Source of the DNA: Candidatus Parcubacteria bacterium | GTDB lineage: Bacteria > Patescibacteriota > Minisyncoccia > Phycocordibacterales > JAKAEA01 | Length of the DNA: 64,000 nt | Assembly (NCBI GenBank): GCA_019661945.1 | Contig: JAIFWI010000003.1 | Span: 1,126 to 65,125, forward strand | Direction of reading: 5' to 3' | Shown here: positions 7,898 through 48,878 of the stretch, piece after piece | Numbering within the stretch: the first letter of the stretch is position 1 | Layout: the number at the start of each line of letters is the position of its first letter | Position numbers and translations under genes: made by a program | Notes under the pieces: generated by a model | Databases searched by the model: none | What the model was told of the DNA's origin: nothing | Seen by the model: only the letters and a program-made list of their open reading frames with translations

Positions 7898-9103
7898 ATG
7901 AGCGAAGAAATACCTCAGTCACAACCATCGGAGCAGGCAATAGAAACTGGCGAGTCAAAGATCGAAAGAATGCGTCGAATGAGAGATGAAATTCTCGAAA
8001 AAGTTCGGACTACAGTTAGGGAGCGTTTCGAAAAGGAGCATTTTCATAACCCCGAGCATCCAATGAATGTCGATATAGCTTCAAGTGAAGTGTTTGCTGT
8101 ATTTAAAAAACACGATGGTCATAGAGTGACTGAGGAGGCAGATATTATCAGAAAAATTATTACCGAGAGTCATGATTTGGTGGTGCGCTATGTCCTCGAT
8201 GTTAAGACAGGAACTCGAATTCGCCAGCGAGGTACTCGATTTGGTGAGATACCGGCTAAAGCTAAAACTCTTGATCAAACGGATGACCAGGGAAATGAAC
8301 AGGCAAGTATCAAGGAGCTCATTGAGATCATTAAGGAAGTTGATCCAACAGGCGAAATATTTACTCCGGAAATATATCAAATCATTACTGAAGGTATTAA
8401 TGCGACATATCCTGAAGGCAGAAAAGATGGTAAGTTAGACGAGCTTAGTGAAGAAGAACTTAAAAAGATTACTGATCCAGAGACAGGACAACCGTTGGAC
8501 TTCAGTAAATTCAGAGATGCAGAAGGTAAGTTTTTGAATTATAACCTCGAACAGCCGTATCTAAAAGGTGCACAGTATCTTTCAACTGTTGCAACGGCGA
8601 TTGGAGATTTAAGTTATGTTGGCCGAGTATCTTTTGAAAAGTTTAAAAAGTTTGGTGATGCTGAATATCGTGAAACTCGAGAAAAGACAACATATGAACT
8701 TACGGAAAAAGATAAAGATTTACCTATAGAGAAAAGAATACAAGCGCTCAGTCCTGAACGAAAAGCGGAAATTGCAAAAGATATGATCTATGAATGGGTT
8801 AAGTTACAGCCTGGATTTGCTATCAGCCAAAAGATTCGCTTTAAAGACATTGTTGTTAATGAAAATGACCATACTGTTATTGATGATGTGGTGGAAGATG
8901 CAGAAAAAAGCAAGAAAATTAAAGATGAATTAGATAGCATTTATAATGAATTTGATCCAAATATTATCGGGGCGACTAAGCGTTTTGAAAGGCTTGAGGC
9001 AGCTTACTCCTCGCTCATTCAAGTTGAAAGTTTTGTAAAAAATCCTGACGAAAGTAATAAGCTCTTTATCGATCTTGCCCGCGATATGGGGTATAGTTTT
9101 TAG
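7898..9103 (+). CDS. hypothetical acidic protein (401 aa)
   Basis: Long ORF starting 4 nt after the previous stop, suggesting an operon. No domain was recognised. Confidence 0.65.
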   Translation: MSEEIPQSQPSEQAIETGESKIERMRRMRDEILEKVRTTVRERFEKEHFHNPEHPMNVDIASSEVFAVFKKHDGHRVTEEADIIRKIITESHDLVVRYVLDVKTGTRIRQRGTRFGEIPAKAKTLDQTDDQGNEQASIKELIEIIKEVDPTGEIFTPEIYQIITEGINATYPEGRKDGKLDELSEEELKKITDPETGQPLDFSKFRDAEGKFLNYNLEQPYLKGAQYLSTVATAIGDLSYVGRVSFEKFKKFGDAEYRETREKTTYELTEKDKDLPIEKRIQALSPERKAEIAKDMIYEWVKLQPGFAISQKIRFKDIVVNENDHTVIDDVVEDAEKSKKIKDELDSIYNEFDPNIIGATKRFERLEAAYSSLIQVESFVKNPDESNKLFIDLARDMGYSF

Positions 9104-9174: not shown

Positions 9175-9678
9175 ATGGCCCAAGAAACGACGACCCCACC
9201 GGTACCGGTGGCAGCAGCGCCAAAGCAGGGAGCCGCGGTGCTCCTGCGCTACGGCAACGACATGCTCCTGATGCTCCGGGACGATAAGCCCGGGCTTCCG
9301 AGCGCTCTTCAGTGGTCGGTCTTCGCCGGCGGCATCGAAGAGGGCGAGACGGCCGAGATAACCATCGGTCGCGAGCTCCGCGAAGAGCTCGGCGGTCAGG
9401 TCCAGGTTGAGAGGCTCGGCAAGACGCCGGCCAATACCTGGTTCACTGCTTCGATCACTGGCCAGCATGCGGCTAACCTCAAGCGAGGAGAGGGCTGTGG
9501 TCACGGCTTCTTCTCATTCGATGCCCTTGTCTGGATGAGCAAGATCGACGGTAAATTGGGACTCGGCGGCGCGATCAAGAAGTTCATGGAGCGCGCGCCT
9601 GAGGAAATCCGGATATTCCTCCAAAGTGGCCGGAATCCCAACCTCTCGGTACTCACCGGCATCATCGTCGAGCCGTAG
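9175..9678 (+). CDS. NUDIX hydrolase (GC-rich, ~63% GC)
   Basis: The Nudix box GGIEEGETAEITIGRELREELG matches GX5EX7REUXEEXGU. A Shine-Dalgarno site GGGAGG lies 6 nt upstream. Composition is strongly atypical for this genome. Confidence 0.8.
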   Translation: MAQETTTPPVPVAAAPKQGAAVLLRYGNDMLLMLRDDKPGLPSALQWSVFAGGIEEGETAEITIGRELREELGGQVQVERLGKTPANTWFTASITGQHAANLKRGEGCGHGFFSFDALVWMSKIDGKLGLGGAIKKFMERAPEEIRIFLQSGRNPNLSVLTGIIVEP

Positions 9679-9715
9679 CGCCTGAAGTACCTTCCGTTCC
9701 TGCGACACATGTCGC

Positions 9716-9741
9716 GCAGCGTCCCACACCCGGGACGCTGC
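9716..9741 (+). terminator. intrinsic terminator (GCAGCGTCCC-ACACCC-GGGACGCTGC, then TTTACTTTACT)
   Basis: Perfect 10-bp GC-rich stem downstream of the NUDIX gene. Confidence 0.6.
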
Positions 9742-9745
9742 TTTA

Positions 9746-9778
9746 CTTTACTCTTATACAAAATGGCCTATAGTAAAG
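9746..9778 (+). promoter_or_regulatory. promoter-like element, copy 2 of the 33-nt direct repeat (TTTACT-17-TATAGT); near-leaderless start of pgeF-like gene
   Basis: CTTTACTCTTATACAAAATGGCCTATAGTAAAG. The ATG at 9783 lies 9 nt after the -10 box and has no Shine-Dalgarno site. Confidence 0.5.
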
Positions 9779-9782
9779 CCAT

Positions 9783-10577
9783 ATGCTTTTTAAGCCGTAT
9801 AAACACTTTTTACTTACCGACAGACTTCAGGTCTATATTTACGGTAAGCCCCATAATTGGAGTATGCATAATCAGAAATCATGGAAAAATGTAGCAATGC
9901 TTGCTGATACATTAAACGTGACAAAGATATATTCGCCATTTCCCGAAGAATTCAATACCCGAATTTGTCAGCAAGAAGATTTCATTGAATATGATCCCGG
10001 TATTTCAAAAACAGTTAAAATATTTCGAACACCAAAAGGTAATCCAGCAGAAGGTGCCCTTATTCCTCAAGGAGCTGCCTTTTGGACAACATCAGCTGAT
10101 TGTCCCATGATTTTAATATACGATGACAAGCAAGCGGTTGCCACACATAGCGGGCGTGATTCACTCGTTACCTATGATCCATATCAGAGTAAGATTCGAC
10201 CAAATGAAAGTGTGATTGACGGGATGATTAAGTTATTTCCGGAGTCAAAACATTCTCAACTCAAAGTATTTTTTGTTAATCGAATTGCACCAGAACATTT
10301 TGCAAATCCAATTAATGATCCCAAAAATGGAGAGCGCAATAAAAAAATTATTAATGCTGTAATTAAAAAATGGGGCAAAGAATGTATAGTCGGTAATCTA
10401 AATGAAGGACATATTTCATTAGCAACACTCATTCTTAAGCAATGCGAATTCTATGGTATCCTAAGCAAGAATATCATAGATGGTGGACTCGATACGTTTT
10501 CCGACTCACATCTTTGGAGTCACCGTCAAGGCAATATGGAGCGTAATAGAATTCTTGTAATACATCACGTAAAGTAA
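9783..10577 (+). CDS. pgeF: YfiH/PgeF-family (DUF152, laccase-domain) protein, peptidoglycan editing factor-like
   Basis: Motifs SADCPMIL, ATHSGRDSL and SHRQG...NRIL resemble the ADC..., HAGWRG and SYRR boxes. It lies immediately upstream of murD-murC. Confidence 0.55.
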   Translation: MLFKPYKHFLLTDRLQVYIYGKPHNWSMHNQKSWKNVAMLADTLNVTKIYSPFPEEFNTRICQQEDFIEYDPGISKTVKIFRTPKGNPAEGALIPQGAAFWTTSADCPMILIYDDKQAVATHSGRDSLVTYDPYQSKIRPNESVIDGMIKLFPESKHSQLKVFFVNRIAPEHFANPINDPKNGERNKKIINAVIKKWGKECIVGNLNEGHISLATLILKQCEFYGILSKNIIDGGLDTFSDSHLWSHRQGNMERNRILVIHHVK

Positions 10578-43805: not shown

Positions 43806-46361
43806 GTGCCTATGTTTGGAATGGAAACCATTTTTGGAGATCAAAATTCAAAAACTATAAAAACGCTTGAGCCGATTGTCGAGAAGATTAATGCCTTAGA
43901 AAGCACTATTTCTGCTCTTACTAATGAAGGTTTACGAGATAAGACTACCGAGCTCAAGCAGAAGTTAGATCAAGGATCGACTTTTGATGATATCTTGCCT
44001 GAAGCTTTTGCTTTAGTGCGTGAGGCAGCTAAGCGGACACTTGGGCAGCGTCATTTCAATGTCCAGCTTATTGGCGGTATGATCATGCACCAAAGCGGTA
44101 TTGCCGAAATGAAAACCGGAGAAGGTAAGACCCTGGTAGCAACGTTGCCGGCCTATGTAAATGCCCTAACCGGAAAAGGTGTACACATTGTTACGGTAAA
44201 TGATTATCTCTCACGCCGTGACGCAGTTTGGATGGGACAAATATATTCATTGCTTGGATTAAGTGTTGGTGTTATTAATCACGACACATCGTTTGTGTAT
44301 GATCCGGCTCATAAGGAACTTGATGAGAAACGTGATGAGGTTGCTTCATTTAAGGTAATGTATGACTTTCTGCGTCCATCAACAAGACGTGAAGCTTATA
44401 ATGCCGATATTACCTATGGTACTAACAATGAATTCGGTTTTGATTATCTGCGCGATAATATTGAATACGATATTAATAATCTCCGCCAACGCGAATTTAA
44501 TTACGCTATTGTTGATGAAGTCGATTCAATTTTAATTGACGAAGCCCGCACGCCGCTTATTATTTCTGCTCCAACCGTTGAATCAGAAAACTTATATGTC
44601 ACTTTTGCCAAGATTGCTGACCAACTTCATGAAGGCAAAGATTATGAAGTCGATGAGAAGCTGCGAGCTATCAGCCTGACGGACGATGGTATCTCTAAAG
44701 CCGAGAAAATTCTCGGTGTCGAGAATATCTATACTGATAAAGGCATTAAATATGTTCATCATCTTGAGACTGCGGTGCGCGCCAAGGCACTTTTTAAAAA
44801 AGATAAAGAATATGTCGTTAAAGACGATGAAATTATTATCGTTGATGAGTTTACCGGTCGGATGATGCCAGGCCGACGTTGGTCTGAGGGACTTCATCAA
44901 GCTGTTGAAGCTAAGGAAAGCGTATCAATTCAGAGAGAAACCAGAACCTACGCTTCTATTACCTTCCAAAATTATTTCAGACTCTATAAAAAACTTGCAG
45001 GTATGACTGGTACAGCTTTGACCTCAAAAGAAGAATTTCGAAAGGTCTATGGACTTGAGACCGTATCAGTGCCGACAAATAAACCAATGGCCCGTCTTGA
45101 CCGAAATGATTTTATTTTTCAGACTGAAATGGGGAAATTCAAGGCCGTGGCTCGAAAAGTTAAAGAAGTCTATAAACGGGGTCAGCCAATTCTTGTTGGA
45201 ACGGTTTCAATTGAGAAAAATGAATTGCTCGGCCAATTTCTTCAAAGCGAAGGTGTGCCGCACCATATTTTAAATGCTAAAAACCATGAGAAAGAAGGTG
45301 AAATTATTGCTCAGGCCGGCCGCAAGGGCGCCGTTACTATTGCAACGAACATGGCCGGCCGAGGTGTGGATATTAAACTAGGCGGACCAGATGCGAGCGA
45401 TGCCGAGCGTGAAGAAATTAAAAAAGCCGGTGGTTTATTTGTCCTAGGTACTGAGCGTCATGAGGCACGCAGAATCGATAATCAGCTTCGAGGCCGTTCG
45501 GGACGACAAGGAGATCCGGGTGAAACTCAGTTTTTTGTCTCTATGGAAGATTCATTGATGCGGGTTTTCGCCTCAGATATGATGAAGGGACTTATGGGAC
45601 GCTTGGGAGTTAAAGAAGATGAGCCAATTGAAAATAGAATTATTACCCGAGCGCTCGAATCGGCCCAGACAAAAATTGAAGGATTTCACTTCGATTCTCG
45701 CAAGCATACCCTTGAATACGATGATGTTTTAAATACTCAACGAAAGAGCGTGTATGAACGCCGTCGAAAAGTATTGCTTGGAGAGGGTGAGGCTCTCAAG
45801 CAAATTTTAGAAGAAACACTTACCCTAGAACATGCAGATGAAGAAACAAAAAAGCTTATTGAGGAACGTAAAAAGGTTCTGGGGGAAGCTGAATTTTATA
45901 AAGTTGTACGTCGTTTGCTTTTGCAGACAATAGATACGCACTGGATTGATCATCTTGAACTTATGGAATATGCTCGATCTTCGGTAAATCTTCGAGCTTA
46001 CGGTCAGCGCGATCCCCTTGTGGAGTATAAAAAAGAAGGTTTGAGATTATTTAAAGAAATGCAGGAGAGTATTAATGCTCAGGTATTTTCATTGCTGCCC
46101 ACTATCGGCGCTGGAATGTTTCAAGAAGAAGAGCAGAAGCTCAAAAATGTGCAGCGCCAGGCCGAACTCCTCGGTGGCTCTGAAACAAGTACTGATGCCG
46201 GCGGCGCATCCGGAGTCCAATCTGCTGTAATGGTTTCAAGTGATGGCGAAAAAGTCGGCCGAAATGATAGAATTATCGTAACAAAAGGCAGTGAAGAAAA
46301 AGAAATTAAATTTAAAAAACTCGATCAGCATCTTAAAGACGGCTGGGTGGTAAAGAAATAA
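43806..46361 (+). CDS. secA: preprotein translocase ATPase SecA
   Basis: IFGD...KTL N-terminus, DEAD-like motifs (GEGKTLVATLP, VDEVDSIL) and overall 851-aa SecA architecture. The start is ambiguous among GTG 43806, ATG 43812 and ATG 43821. Confidence 0.9.
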   Translation: MPMFGMETIFGDQNSKTIKTLEPIVEKINALESTISALTNEGLRDKTTELKQKLDQGSTFDDILPEAFALVREAAKRTLGQRHFNVQLIGGMIMHQSGIAEMKTGEGKTLVATLPAYVNALTGKGVHIVTVNDYLSRRDAVWMGQIYSLLGLSVGVINHDTSFVYDPAHKELDEKRDEVASFKVMYDFLRPSTRREAYNADITYGTNNEFGFDYLRDNIEYDINNLRQREFNYAIVDEVDSILIDEARTPLIISAPTVESENLYVTFAKIADQLHEGKDYEVDEKLRAISLTDDGISKAEKILGVENIYTDKGIKYVHHLETAVRAKALFKKDKEYVVKDDEIIIVDEFTGRMMPGRRWSEGLHQAVEAKESVSIQRETRTYASITFQNYFRLYKKLAGMTGTALTSKEEFRKVYGLETVSVPTNKPMARLDRNDFIFQTEMGKFKAVARKVKEVYKRGQPILVGTVSIEKNELLGQFLQSEGVPHHILNAKNHEKEGEIIAQAGRKGAVTIATNMAGRGVDIKLGGPDASDAEREEIKKAGGLFVLGTERHEARRIDNQLRGRSGRQGDPGETQFFVSMEDSLMRVFASDMMKGLMGRLGVKEDEPIENRIITRALESAQTKIEGFHFDSRKHTLEYDDVLNTQRKSVYERRRKVLLGEGEALKQILEETLTLEHADEETKKLIEERKKVLGEAEFYKVVRRLLLQTIDTHWIDHLELMEYARSSVNLRAYGQRDPLVEYKKEGLRLFKEMQESINAQVFSLLPTIGAGMFQEEEQKLKNVQRQAELLGGSETSTDAGGASGVQSAVMVSSDGEKVGRNDRIIVTKGSEEKEIKFKKLDQHLKDGWVVKK

Positions 46362-47105: not shown

Positions 47106-47948
47106 ATGATCATGTCAGTTGATTTGGCTGCGGCAGGGCTGATCAATATCAGCTACCCGCTTCAAATTCGAGACAAGGTTGAACAGACTGTTCAGTCATG
47201 GAAATGGTTCTGCGAGCTTCACTCGGACATCAAAAAGAGTTTCGCCTACGAGAACGAGGGTAATCTCGATGGAGCCGGTTATGAGCTCAAACTCGATAAG
47301 GGCTCGACGAAGGATCTCAAGGAGGACTTCCACTACAATGAAAAGTCCTTTGACCGCCTCAGGCGTACAGCTAATGATTCGAAGGAACCACATGCCTTCT
47401 CCTTTATCTTTGATGCCAAGGATTTGGTCCAGGCTCTTACCTCGTTTGTTAGTGATTTTGCAGATGGTCTTGAGGGACTTCTTGATTTGCGGGGGTTTCG
47501 CCAAGAAGTGATTGATAGCCGGCCAAACTGGATTCTGCGCTCTCTGCATTACTTCGGTGATCGGCAGCCGGGAGAAATGTTGGCTACGCCGCATGCAGAC
47601 AAAAGCGGCTTCACGCTTCATCTCTTTGAGAGCCACCTGGGTCTCGAGTATCTGGACATGGCTACTCGTGCATGGAGAGAAATGCCCATGGCCGAAGGTC
47701 AGACGGTGATCATCAGCAATCAGCAGCTCCAGTATAAAACACAGGGGCGGTTGAAGGGCTTATGTCATCGAGTGATAGCGACCGAAGAGACCGCCAAGGT
47801 CGGGCGCTATTCCATGGTGTTATTTGTGCCTCTTCTGCAGACGCCGAAGTTTGACACAAGGGGCAAAGGTCGCCAGCAGGATTTGCCGCCCGGCTGGAAC
47901 TACGACATTAGCCATGAGGAATTTTCACAGTACTTTGAACCGCTGTAG
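47106..47948 (+). CDS. 2-oxoglutarate/Fe(II)-dependent dioxygenase superfamily protein, GC-rich
   Basis: HxD (TPHADKSG) and distal His (LCHRV) motifs of the 2OG-FeII_Oxy fold. A Shine-Dalgarno site GGAGG is present. GC is ~55%. Confidence 0.6.
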   Translation: MIMSVDLAAAGLINISYPLQIRDKVEQTVQSWKWFCELHSDIKKSFAYENEGNLDGAGYELKLDKGSTKDLKEDFHYNEKSFDRLRRTANDSKEPHAFSFIFDAKDLVQALTSFVSDFADGLEGLLDLRGFRQEVIDSRPNWILRSLHYFGDRQPGEMLATPHADKSGFTLHLFESHLGLEYLDMATRAWREMPMAEGQTVIISNQQLQYKTQGRLKGLCHRVIATEETAKVGRYSMVLFVPLLQTPKFDTRGKGRQQDLPPGWNYDISHEEFSQYFEPL

Positions 47949-47989
47949 CGCCTGACGTCCGTCTAGCGCTTTTTTTATAAGTATATCAC

Positions 47990-48870
47990 ATAGACACTTA
48001 GTGTCCAAATTTAACTCTATTTTATTATTTATTTATAAAGTTTTTAAGTTCAATTATCTATAATTCGTTGGACACTTAGTGTCTCAACTTATGAGAAATA
48101 TCGAACTTTCAGTCGGCAGTTACTATCATTTATTTAACCGAGGTGTGGATAAAAGATTAGTCTTTCTCGATCAAGATGATATCGGCCGGTTCCTTTTAAG
48201 TATGAACCTATTTAATTCGACTATTCCTCTAGGTAGTATCTACCAAAGTAATTTAGTGAAAAAGAAGGAAGAACGTGGACACTTAGTGTCCAAACCAGTA
48301 GAAAGGCTGGTTGAGTTTATATGTTATTGTCTAAATCCTAATCATTATCATTTCCTCATTCAACAGCTTGCTGATAAGGGAATAGAGAAATTCATGCACA
48401 AGCTCGGAAATGGATATACAAAATATTTCAATCATAAATACAAACGCACAGGCTCTCTATTCGGAGGAAATTATAAATCAGTTTTAATAAAGTCAAATGA
48501 ACAACTTTTACATACAAGTGCATACATAAATCTGAACAATAGGATTAGTGAAAAGGGAAGTATATTTGATCTATCTAAATCAAGCTGGGGCGAGTATATC
48601 TCTAATCAAGACGGAATATGCAATAAAGATATAATCCTTGAACAGTTCACTGATAGTCAGGTCTATAAGTCTTTTGCTGAGAGTTCCTATATAGATATTC
48701 AAGAAAGAAAAATACTAAGAAAAGAGCTTGAAATATGGGGAGTGGACACTTAGTGTCTATAAGCTATACTAAAGTTGTAACAAATCCCAATCCTATCCAG
48801 TTATAACAGGTGTAAAGGTCGGCAAAATGAACTAGTGGACCGGGATGGGTAGGGAAAACCCATCCTGTAA
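47990..48870 (+). mobile_element. RAYT/IS200-like element: HuH-Y1 transposase gene with four REP-like palindromes and a terminal hairpin
   Basis: The GGACACTTAGTGTCC-type palindrome occurs at 47993-48005, 48071-48083, 48278-48290 and 48744-48756. A strong hairpin lies at 48841-48867. Confidence 0.6.
48091..48753 (+). CDS. REP-associated tyrosine transposase / IS200-family TnpA-like (Y1 HuH)
   Basis: YYHLFNRGV N-terminal motif, HuH motif PNHYHFLI, and a Tyr-bearing GGNYKSVLI...YINLN region. One palindrome copy lies inside the ORF and one overlaps the stop. Confidence 0.7.
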   Translation: MRNIELSVGSYYHLFNRGVDKRLVFLDQDDIGRFLLSMNLFNSTIPLGSIYQSNLVKKKEERGHLVSKPVERLVEFICYCLNPNHYHFLIQQLADKGIEKFMHKLGNGYTKYFNHKYKRTGSLFGGNYKSVLIKSNEQLLHTSAYINLNNRISEKGSIFDLSKSSWGEYISNQDGICNKDIILEQFTDSQVYKSFAESSYIDIQERKILRKELEIWGVDT

Positions 48871-48878
48871 CCATATCA

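Follow-up and report, generated by a model that had tools for sequence, protein, structure and literature searches.

The question raised by this locus is whether a transposase-type gene flanked and interrupted by short palindromes is a mobile element, the source of a dispersed repeat or a long-resident unit of the chromosome. The stretch analysed, hereafter the window, is 64 kb of DNA from a Candidatus Parcubacteria bacterium, and the element in question is a Y1 HuH gene together with four palindrome copies at its borders and within its coding sequence. The reading favoured here, at a probability of roughly 60%, assigns the locus to a large Candidate Phyla Radiation (CPR) family of compact units, each made of a Y1 HuH gene and its own hairpins, and sees in it a resident and somewhat decayed member. 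The evidence comprises the fold and motifs of the protein, a four-site hairpin architecture, covariation within the stems, identity of the hairpins within a gene, homology bounded by the unit, and promoter-like sequence. The features of the locus are as follows.

48091..48753, plus strand: the Y1 HuH gene (TnpA_Y1 class-2-like, 220 aa), with Pfam Y1_Tnp, the HUH motif at 48340-48351 and Tyr145 at 48523-48525.
47980..48007 (core 47993-48005), minus strand: copy 1 with its extension, minus-strand reading TGGACACTAAGTGTCTAT..TATACT, the left arm of an inverted pair.
48068..48084, plus strand: copy 2, the upstream (U) hairpin TTGGACACTTAGTGTCT, at -5.6 kcal/mol and z -4.3.
48276..48292, plus strand: copy 3, in the internal slot I1, TGGACACTTAGTGTCCA, in frame and encoding residues 62-68, RGHLVSK.
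48532..48576, plus strand: the internal slot I2, residues 148-162, in the loop after the Tyr helix, with no hairpin in the window gene.
48743..48770, plus strand: copy 4, the downstream (D) hairpin with its extension, TGGACACTTAGTGTCTAT..TATACT, the right arm of the inverted pair.

The protein is of the Y1 HuH transposase type, as a first-pass annotation of the window had proposed. Pfam Y1_Tnp is matched above threshold (29.2 bits against a cut-off of 23, E = 1.1e-6), over residues 74-147 only. The HUH motif, N84-H-Y-H87, and Tyr145 are invariant columns in alignments of 27 and 95 sequences, and the ATG at 48091 agrees with the N-termini of the homologs. The AlphaFold (AF2) model, with a mean confidence score (pLDDT) of 86, has a TnpA fold and places Tyr145 on helix 136-147. 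Its best Foldseek match in the PDB is 4ER8, the E. coli TnpA_REP with a repetitive extragenic palindromic (REP) hairpin (E = 2.5e-4, probability 1.00), followed by the TnpA proteins of IS608, ISDra2 and IS200. A PDB sequence-profile search gave no match, and the relation was found by fold comparison only. The NCBIfam model REP_Tyr_transpos (NF047646) scores 20.8 bits against a cut-off of 80. The Tyr motif reads Y145-I-N-L-N149-N150, in which the Asn is invariant and Pro is absent; the family consensus is YVNLNN, while sister CPR subfamilies have YIHLNP, with Pro. No helix-turn-helix (HTH)-like C-terminal domain (Bac_DnaA_C, HTH_23 or HTH_28) was found, with Pfam giving Y1_Tnp alone, and the modelled C-terminus is helical. 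Since all invariant residues are kept, the window gene is intact and probably functional.

The 13-mer GACACTTAGTGTC starts at 47993, 48071, 48278 and 48745, which gives four copies in 765 bp. These are the sole matches in the 64-kb window even with one mismatch tolerated, against an expectation of 0.07, and none of 100 shuffles held four copies. Two flavours are seen, one ending in GTGTCCAAA (copies 1 and 3) and one of the form GGACAC..GTGTCT (copies 2 and 4). Copy 3 is in frame at R62-K68, and the TAG stop codon (48751-48753) falls within copy 4. The first-pass annotation had described the four copies in these two flavours, one in the coding sequence and one over the stop codon, and this description holds. 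The 28-nt inverted pair 47980-48007 / 48743-48770 brackets the gene, copy 4 being 86% complementary when set against the reverse complement of copy 1. Copy 1 lies directly 3′ of the oxygenase terminator and is promoter-like (TGGACA-16-TATACT), pointing outward; copy 4 is also promoter-like and points toward the sigma gene. A TATAAT hexamer at 48059-48064 stands just 5′ of copy 2. The peptide of copy 3 forms a low-confidence surface loop in the model, joining helix 50-61 to strand 74-81. At I2 the best candidate in the window gene pairs at 6/11 positions, and the slot is likewise empty in the ortholog. Folding the palindromes as single-stranded DNA, a check the annotation had suggested, does give hairpins, but weak ones of -3 to -6 kcal/mol, where a typical family member reaches -13.4 kcal/mol.

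An ortholog of the window gene (P0002, loci L095/L096) is fully syntenic, with the order oxygenase, Y1 gene and extracytoplasmic function (ECF) sigma factor, at approximately 66% DNA identity. Despite this divergence, its U, I1 and D sites share the GGACAC/GTGTCC module with the window gene. At the site of copy 1, L095 retains the right half alone, TCCAAATTTAA, and the left half is missing. A chance or low-complexity repeat with no function might look like the window copies, which are short and fold weakly. However, four copies where 0.07 are expected, the same module at the same three sites in an ortholog this divergent, and the recurrence of four positions throughout the family already refute that explanation. 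It has also been noted in L095, at 1364-1395, that the D hairpin is followed by GTATGAGAAAT, a repeat of the post-U sequence at the gene start, ATGAGAAAT; the repeated tract is therefore longer than the palindrome.

The family itself is large. More than 1,700 homologs were found, nearly all of the source-named ones labelled Patescibacteria, and among clusters at 50% identity 179 match at E <= 1e-30 and 3,094 at E <= 1e-10. One database entry, on an 80-kb Candidatus Parcubacteria contig, has a protein identical to that of the window. At least 593 loci are present in species-representative genomes, from which 79 were taken, and 82 homologous genes were compared. Hairpins of at least 9 bp fall at four sites in these 82 genes: U, at -60 to -21 before the ATG (57 hairpins); I1, at aa 51-70 (43); I2, at aa 151-160 (40); and D, from -50 to +59 about the stop codon (approximately 56), with the internal positions given as query residues. 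Only about four such hairpins lie elsewhere in the coding sequences. When pairing at 9/11 positions or more is counted instead, U is occupied in 68/79, I1 in 52/82, I2 in 52/82 and D in 60/82, against 9/249 control windows. Most D hairpins start 1-14 nt past the stop codon. A single codon phase accounts for 47/52 of the I1 copies and 51/52 of the I2 copies, and the two slots are the two lowest-pLDDT blocks of the model, I2 being the lowest, and both are loops by DSSP.

In-frame hairpin copies at fixed slots are thus the rule in the CPR family. The internal copy had been called unusual in the annotation; this does not stand, and in-frame REPs are also on record in another subclass of REP-associated tyrosine transposases (RAYTs) (Quentin et al. 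2018, PMC6006769). It is the window gene that is atypical, with short stems, no I2 copy and an additional upstream copy, and it is a somewhat degenerate member of the family. In the protein alignment, the I1 peptide varies among homologs yet recurs within one protein (QLGSSTPKL twice, LGHRVSK twice), which indicates that the coding sequence contains a gene-specific DNA palindrome in two places. In more divergent CPR subfamilies (28-44% identity, YIHLNP), five of the seven paralogs compared have palindromes of unrelated sequence at U and D, and four have one at the I1 slot, so the I1 slot is old.

Divergent Y1 genes with YIHLNP and a PWSSY-type tail were also seen at L046 2137-2859, L050 6390-7055, L062 451-1098, L035 11668-12081 (minus strand) and L086 from 100. 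These genes come with palindromes of their own, unrelated in sequence, on the upstream side and at the stop codon, with an I1-slot copy in L050, L062 and L086.

The hairpin consensus is (C)ACTTGG-NNNN-NNN-NNNN-CCAAGT(G), in which the outer stem ACTTGG/CCAAGT is kept family-wide. The four inner pairs each occur as two to four Watson-Crick pair types, with 91-97% pairing. When one hairpin is taken for each distinct module (29 modules), 90.5% of the inner 4 bp are Watson-Crick, against 40.6% after shuffling. A structure counter put pairing at 93.4%, compared with 73.1% after shuffling and 24-47% in slid controls, and counted 157 double-sided changes where shuffles gave 46. The pairing of the hairpin is under selection.

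The inner part of the hairpin behaves differently from the outer. Copies have a median identity of 100% within a gene and 63% between genes. Across 29 close pairs, with proteins 68% identical or more, divergence is 41.7% in the inner 11 nt, 26.7% in the rest of the coding sequence (p ~8e-19 against the inner part) and 12.5% in the outer stem (p ~6e-26). The inner modules are hypervariable even between proteins that are 83-87% identical, and are nearly uncoupled from protein similarity. Between about a quarter and a third of genes have more than one module, and up to three occur in one gene. As the copies stand ~200 bp apart with only 6-10 bp of shared flank, and are identical nonetheless, a copying process is required. 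Enzyme-mediated exchange and replication template switching are candidates for it.

A bolder version holds that the inner 11-nt modules are mobile cassettes, cut and pasted by the Y1 enzyme between outer-stem slots. This would explain the within-gene identity, the hypervariability, the multi-module genes, the hybrid-looking hairpins and the intergenic orphan copies at one stroke; it is offered tentatively and considered rather improbable. If it were true, the enzyme would rewrite two surface loops of its own protein and homogenise its own recognition sites, which would make it a self-editing gene.

In the commonest U layout, found in 23 genes, exactly 13 nt separate the hairpin from the ATG (CCAAGTG-nTAnAAT-N6-ATG); the consensus downstream of U reads GTG.tAtaAT. 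In sigma-70 promoters, TGnTAnAAT is the extended -10 element. The left arm of U supplies TTGGnn 17 bp 5′ of the extended -10, which is the -35 position. A TAnnWT-type hexamer directly follows the U hairpin in 38/68 cases; a similar but not identical pattern follows D in 2/60. Between the -10 and the ATG there are 6 nt, which implies a leaderless mRNA. In most genes, to judge from this layout, the U hairpin would act as the core promoter and the transcript would apparently be leaderless. In the window, the gap from copy 2 to the ATG is 6 nt and in the ortholog the gap from TTGGACACTAAGTGTCCAA to the ATG is 3 nt, against a family norm of 13 nt.

These details bear on the level at which the hairpins act. 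The transcript includes the I1 and I2 copies and possibly D, and copy 2 of the window may be at the 5′ end of the transcript, so the hairpins could be thought to act in the mRNA, through stability, processing or translation control. This is very unlikely. The inferred start at the ATG in most genes leaves U outside the RNA. Among mismatches at stem positions 2-9 on the coding strand, G.T is not in excess of A.C (27 vs 38, p = 0.21). The orientation of the loop relative to the gene is approximately random, with same and inverted about equal and no strand or orientation rule found. T-runs follow 1/60 of the D hairpins, and Rfam gave no match at the locus, the only hit being a sub-threshold one to DUF2693 elsewhere. 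For want of a G.U bias, oriented loops, D T-runs and an Rfam match, and given the leaderless layout, an RNA-level role is disfavoured.

The lack of strand bias in the stem mismatches and the overlap of the U palindrome with the putative core promoter would equally suit a domesticated, immobile RAYT-like host gene, with the palindromes as double-stranded DNA operators (the main one at the promoter, the auxiliary ones acting through looping) and no cleavage or mobility. Such a gene would also fit the single context among strains, the synteny of the ortholog and the divergence of the paralogs. Contact with outer half-sites, however, needs no inner palindrome, yet inner pairing stands at 91-97% over 29 modules. 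Palindromic though free in sequence, the inner 11 bp are better explained by a folded hairpin or cruciform than by a half-site operator. The HUH motif and Tyr are invariant, orphan hairpins lie in intergenic DNA, and close relatives are found in unrelated contexts with homology that stops at the hairpins. An operator-only role is accordingly thought doubtful.

This last point is seen in L016 and L017, whose proteins are 87% identical. Their DNA is similar from the U hairpin as far as the D hairpin, and the flanks are unrelated: an HI0933-like flavoprotein gene and UDG in one, fmt and def in the other. The genes fmt and def are normally adjacent. The same U-to-D boundaries were found for L036/L081, L069/L081 and L017/L020. 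The hairpin-bounded segment is thus a discrete unit that relocates rarely, over evolutionary time. Paralogs within one locus or genome are divergent, at 28-48% identity to the query. The IS200/IS605-type transposon expected by the first-pass annotation therefore survives in part. A formerly mobile, hairpin-bounded unit is found in relatives; a typical element is not, given the Y-x3-N motif, the lack of identical copies, the single context among strains and the synteny of the ortholog.

Several side observations concern the genomic setting of the units. A Y1 unit lies 3′ of secA in five loci: the window (43806-46361), L018, L028, L041 and L066. This synteny was considered as proof of vertical descent and set aside as ambiguous, those Y1 proteins not being mutual closest relatives; the recurrence could reflect a target preference or saturated divergence. 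In L023, a 258-nt direct repeat at 98% identity (8398-8655 and 9577-9834) brackets a Y1 unit and may have arisen by duplication, as the scar of an insertion or through an assembly error. In L089, tandem ~43-nt units stand just 3′ of the Y1 unit (842-970), and a ~365-nt segment present in at least six copies in L054 (5052-9778) recurs at L089 1-364.

Outside the genes the palindrome is sparse. Of the cognate copies, 252 are near their own genes, 15 within ~1.5 kb, and 8 come from the distant flanks, 848 kb in total. Of the 168 generic hairpins, defined by the conserved outer stem, 151 are no more than 200 nt away from a Y1 gene and 17 fall in the other 1.1 Mb. Orphan hairpins are intergenic in 14/19 cases, and some stand 4-5 nt past the end of an open reading frame. 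There exists, then, a sparse REP-like orphan population of approximately one per 65 kb. Within the 64-kb window and the loci of the relatives, which is the DNA covered as opposed to whole genomes, the palindrome is no dispersed high-copy REP.

A classical REPtron would have a single-copy RAYT spreading its REP genome-wide, with the gene-linked copies as a local cluster. The fold nearest to TnpA_REP, the mostly intergenic orphans with the same outer stem and the known in-frame REPs in a RAYT gene (PMC6006769) all speak for it. Against this, no extra copies occur in the 64 kb, the distant cognate and generic copies are as few as given above, there is no GTAG/GTGG guide and the REP_Tyr_transpos score is far too low. 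A REPtron of this kind is quite unlikely. The REP/RAYT assignment of the annotation is accordingly upheld for a gene-linked, REP-like hairpin and rejected for a dispersed, high-copy one.

Some orphans occur as intergenic doublets 35-70 nt apart with differing inner modules (L035 7379 and 7449; L050 3913 and 3948), and the L050 Y1 gene has the module of L050 3948 in its D hairpin. Partial Y1 copies that end at a hairpin were seen at L024 14728-14955 and L019 1213-1350. The L024 fragment stops at an I1-type hairpin in which the TGA loop is an in-frame stop, and the L019 fragment adjoins the U hairpin of an intact gene.

For the working of the resident unit, from hairpin binding and cleavage to autoregulation and the copying of modules, the following scheme can be proposed. 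The unit would consist of a ~210-220-codon gene for a single-stranded DNA nuclease/ligase related to RAYT and TnpA, two bounding hairpins and up to two in-frame ones. The enzyme would recognise the folded hairpin by its shape and by the outer stem ACTTGG/CCAAGT, on either strand, in single-stranded DNA. The outer copies would delimit a segment that is occasionally relocated, as the ends of IS200/IS605 do. The U copy may double as the core promoter, its left arm serving as the -35 and its right arm as the TG of the extended -10, and hairpin extrusion or enzyme binding at U would shut the gene off. The internal copies may be extra binding sites tolerated in protein loops. The inner 11-nt modules would be kept alike within a gene, and swapped fast between genes, by a copying process.

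A number of points weigh against this reading of the locus as a resident, formerly mobile hairpin unit. P0044 and P0064 each have a single context, in 11 and 14 contigs; two apparent downstream contexts for P0064 proved to be a gene-calling difference over identical DNA. Neither identical copies in different contexts nor excision junctions were found, nor was a conserved target or cleavage motif outside the hairpins. The window copy is syntenic with its ortholog and so has made no recent move. Its hairpins are weak, at -3 to -6 kcal/mol, and its U copy is without the promoter layout of the family. The uncoupling of modules from protein similarity, with up to three in one gene, makes sequence-specific recognition of the inner stem unlikely. 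Minority modules recur ~5 times more in their own locus than in other loci, a ratio based on four hits only. The 79 loci are the nearest relatives among the 593 or more and no random sample. The hairpins used for covariation were preselected for pairing, which makes the percentage paired partly circular; the double-sided changes and the positional peaks are free of that circularity.

The neighbours of the Y1 gene are a 2-oxoglutarate-Fe(II) oxygenase gene and an ECF-type sigma factor gene, in agreement with the first-pass annotation, which had also described the oxygenase gene as GC-rich. The oxygenase gene (47106-47948) has a GC content of 0.50-0.55 against 0.33-0.43 nearby. It lies 5′ of Y1 in the ortholog too, so that any horizontal acquisition is older than that split. 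The spacer between the Y1 stop and the ATG of the sigma gene (48787-48878) shares the blocks TTGTAACA, GTTATA and GTGTAAAGGTCGG with L095, and is probably a promoter or leader of the sigma operon. It contains a hairpin at 48843-48865, the stem of which is compensatory between the two, with GGATGGG/CCCATCC in the window and ACGATGGG/CCCATCGT in L095. A hairpin had been annotated at 48841-48867 as a possible element end. The hairpin exists, but it is no element end: the block is shared with the ECF-sigma leader of the ortholog, and homology among relatives ends at the stop-adjacent hairpin.

No neighbour gene, such as tnpB, is conserved across the family, the largest neighbour cluster covering 6/80 loci. 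The family was not found on viral contigs, and the 15-mer GGACACTTAGTGTCC gave 15 single, scattered, chance-level matches to viral sequences. PADLOC matched no defence-system model, and searches of the literature turned up no account of the family in CPR bacteria.

Little is understood of the biology of Y1 HuH enzymes that fall outside the classical IS200 group, widespread as they are. In this family, each gene carries its presumed substrate at known positions, and the family as a whole provides dozens of varied inner stems with one invariant outer stem, so that sequence comparison can reveal the rules by which hairpins are recognised. The family also may offer an example, as deduced from the U layout, of a promoter built from a transposase-type hairpin, and it shows concerted evolution of very short repeats ~200 bp apart. 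The “transposases” annotated in streamlined CPR genomes may be units of long residence rather than insertion sequences that are still active. In genome annotation, both units and remnants can be recognised simply by the hairpin ACTTGG-N11-CCAAGT.

Among known systems, in-frame REPs have been described by Quentin et al. (2018; PMC6006769) in subclass 2.4 of Cyanobacteria and Bacteroidetes, where they lie in frame within tnpA_REP, between the HuH motif and the Tyr. As in the CPR family, cognate palindromes occupy the nuclease’s own reading frame, unbroken, in a peripheral loop. However, the insertions of subclass 2.4 vary in length and sequence, whereas the CPR family has two fixed slots, before HuH and after Tyr, in one phase. 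The two differ also in taxon, protein motifs and hairpin type, the CPR hairpins being without the double-foot GTAG...CTAC.

The best structural match is the REPtron (E. coli YafM, 4ER8; Nunvar 2010, PMC2817692; Ton-Hoang 2012, PMC3333891; Messing 2012, PMC3479197), which likewise has a Y1 HuH gene flanked by cognate hairpins, a low gene copy number and divergent paralogs each with its own hairpin. In contrast to the REPtron, the CPR hairpins are almost all gene-linked and take four fixed positions, of which one falls within the promoter. The foot (C)CACTTGG...CCAAGTG(G) has no conserved GT[AG]G guide tetranucleotide on its 5′ side, the Tyr motif is YxNLN[ND] in place of Y-x3-NP, and the NCBIfam RAYT model scores far below its cut-off.

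The nearest protein motifs are those of TIRYT, or subclass 2.1 (Di Nocera et al. 2013, PMC3733652; PMC6006769): NH[YF]H, FQ for WQ, Y[IV]xLN and a serine tail (“SS”, here KSSW). TIRYT also resembles the window locus in its terminal inverted pair, which here is the 28-nt pair of copies 1 and 4, and in flanking repeats that often show no dispersal. The proteins of subclass 2.1 differ in their greater length and in an HTH-like domain at the C-terminus, and REP-like hairpins were not found in their vicinity. In the CPR family strong hairpins are defining, and there is no conserved Pro after LN.

The IS200/IS605 elements (IS200, IS608, ISDra2) share with the CPR family the fold and a compact single-gene unit of ~0.7 kb, as is usual for IS200, with hairpins at both ends. 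Their ends resemble the CPR hairpins, at which homology between differing contexts stops. The motifs differ, being NHYH and Y-x3-N in the CPR family and D-H-[VI]-H and Y-x3-Q in IS200/IS605 subclass 1.1. The CPR family also has no multiple identical copies and no tnpB, its hairpins are terminal and not subterminal, extra copies are in frame, and no conserved target or cleavage tetranucleotide was found. Rolling-circle Rep proteins, such as those of phiX174 gene A and pT181 repC, have the nick site inside their own gene. They are similar in being HuH enzymes with a recognition site in their own coding sequence. Unlike the CPR enzymes, they are initiators of circular replicons with a single origin; the CPR units are chromosomal, with several fixed-slot copies and a Y1 transposase-type fold. 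Although it fails defining tests of each of RAYT, IS200/IS605 and TIRYT, the CPR family works like a hybrid of RAYT and IS200.

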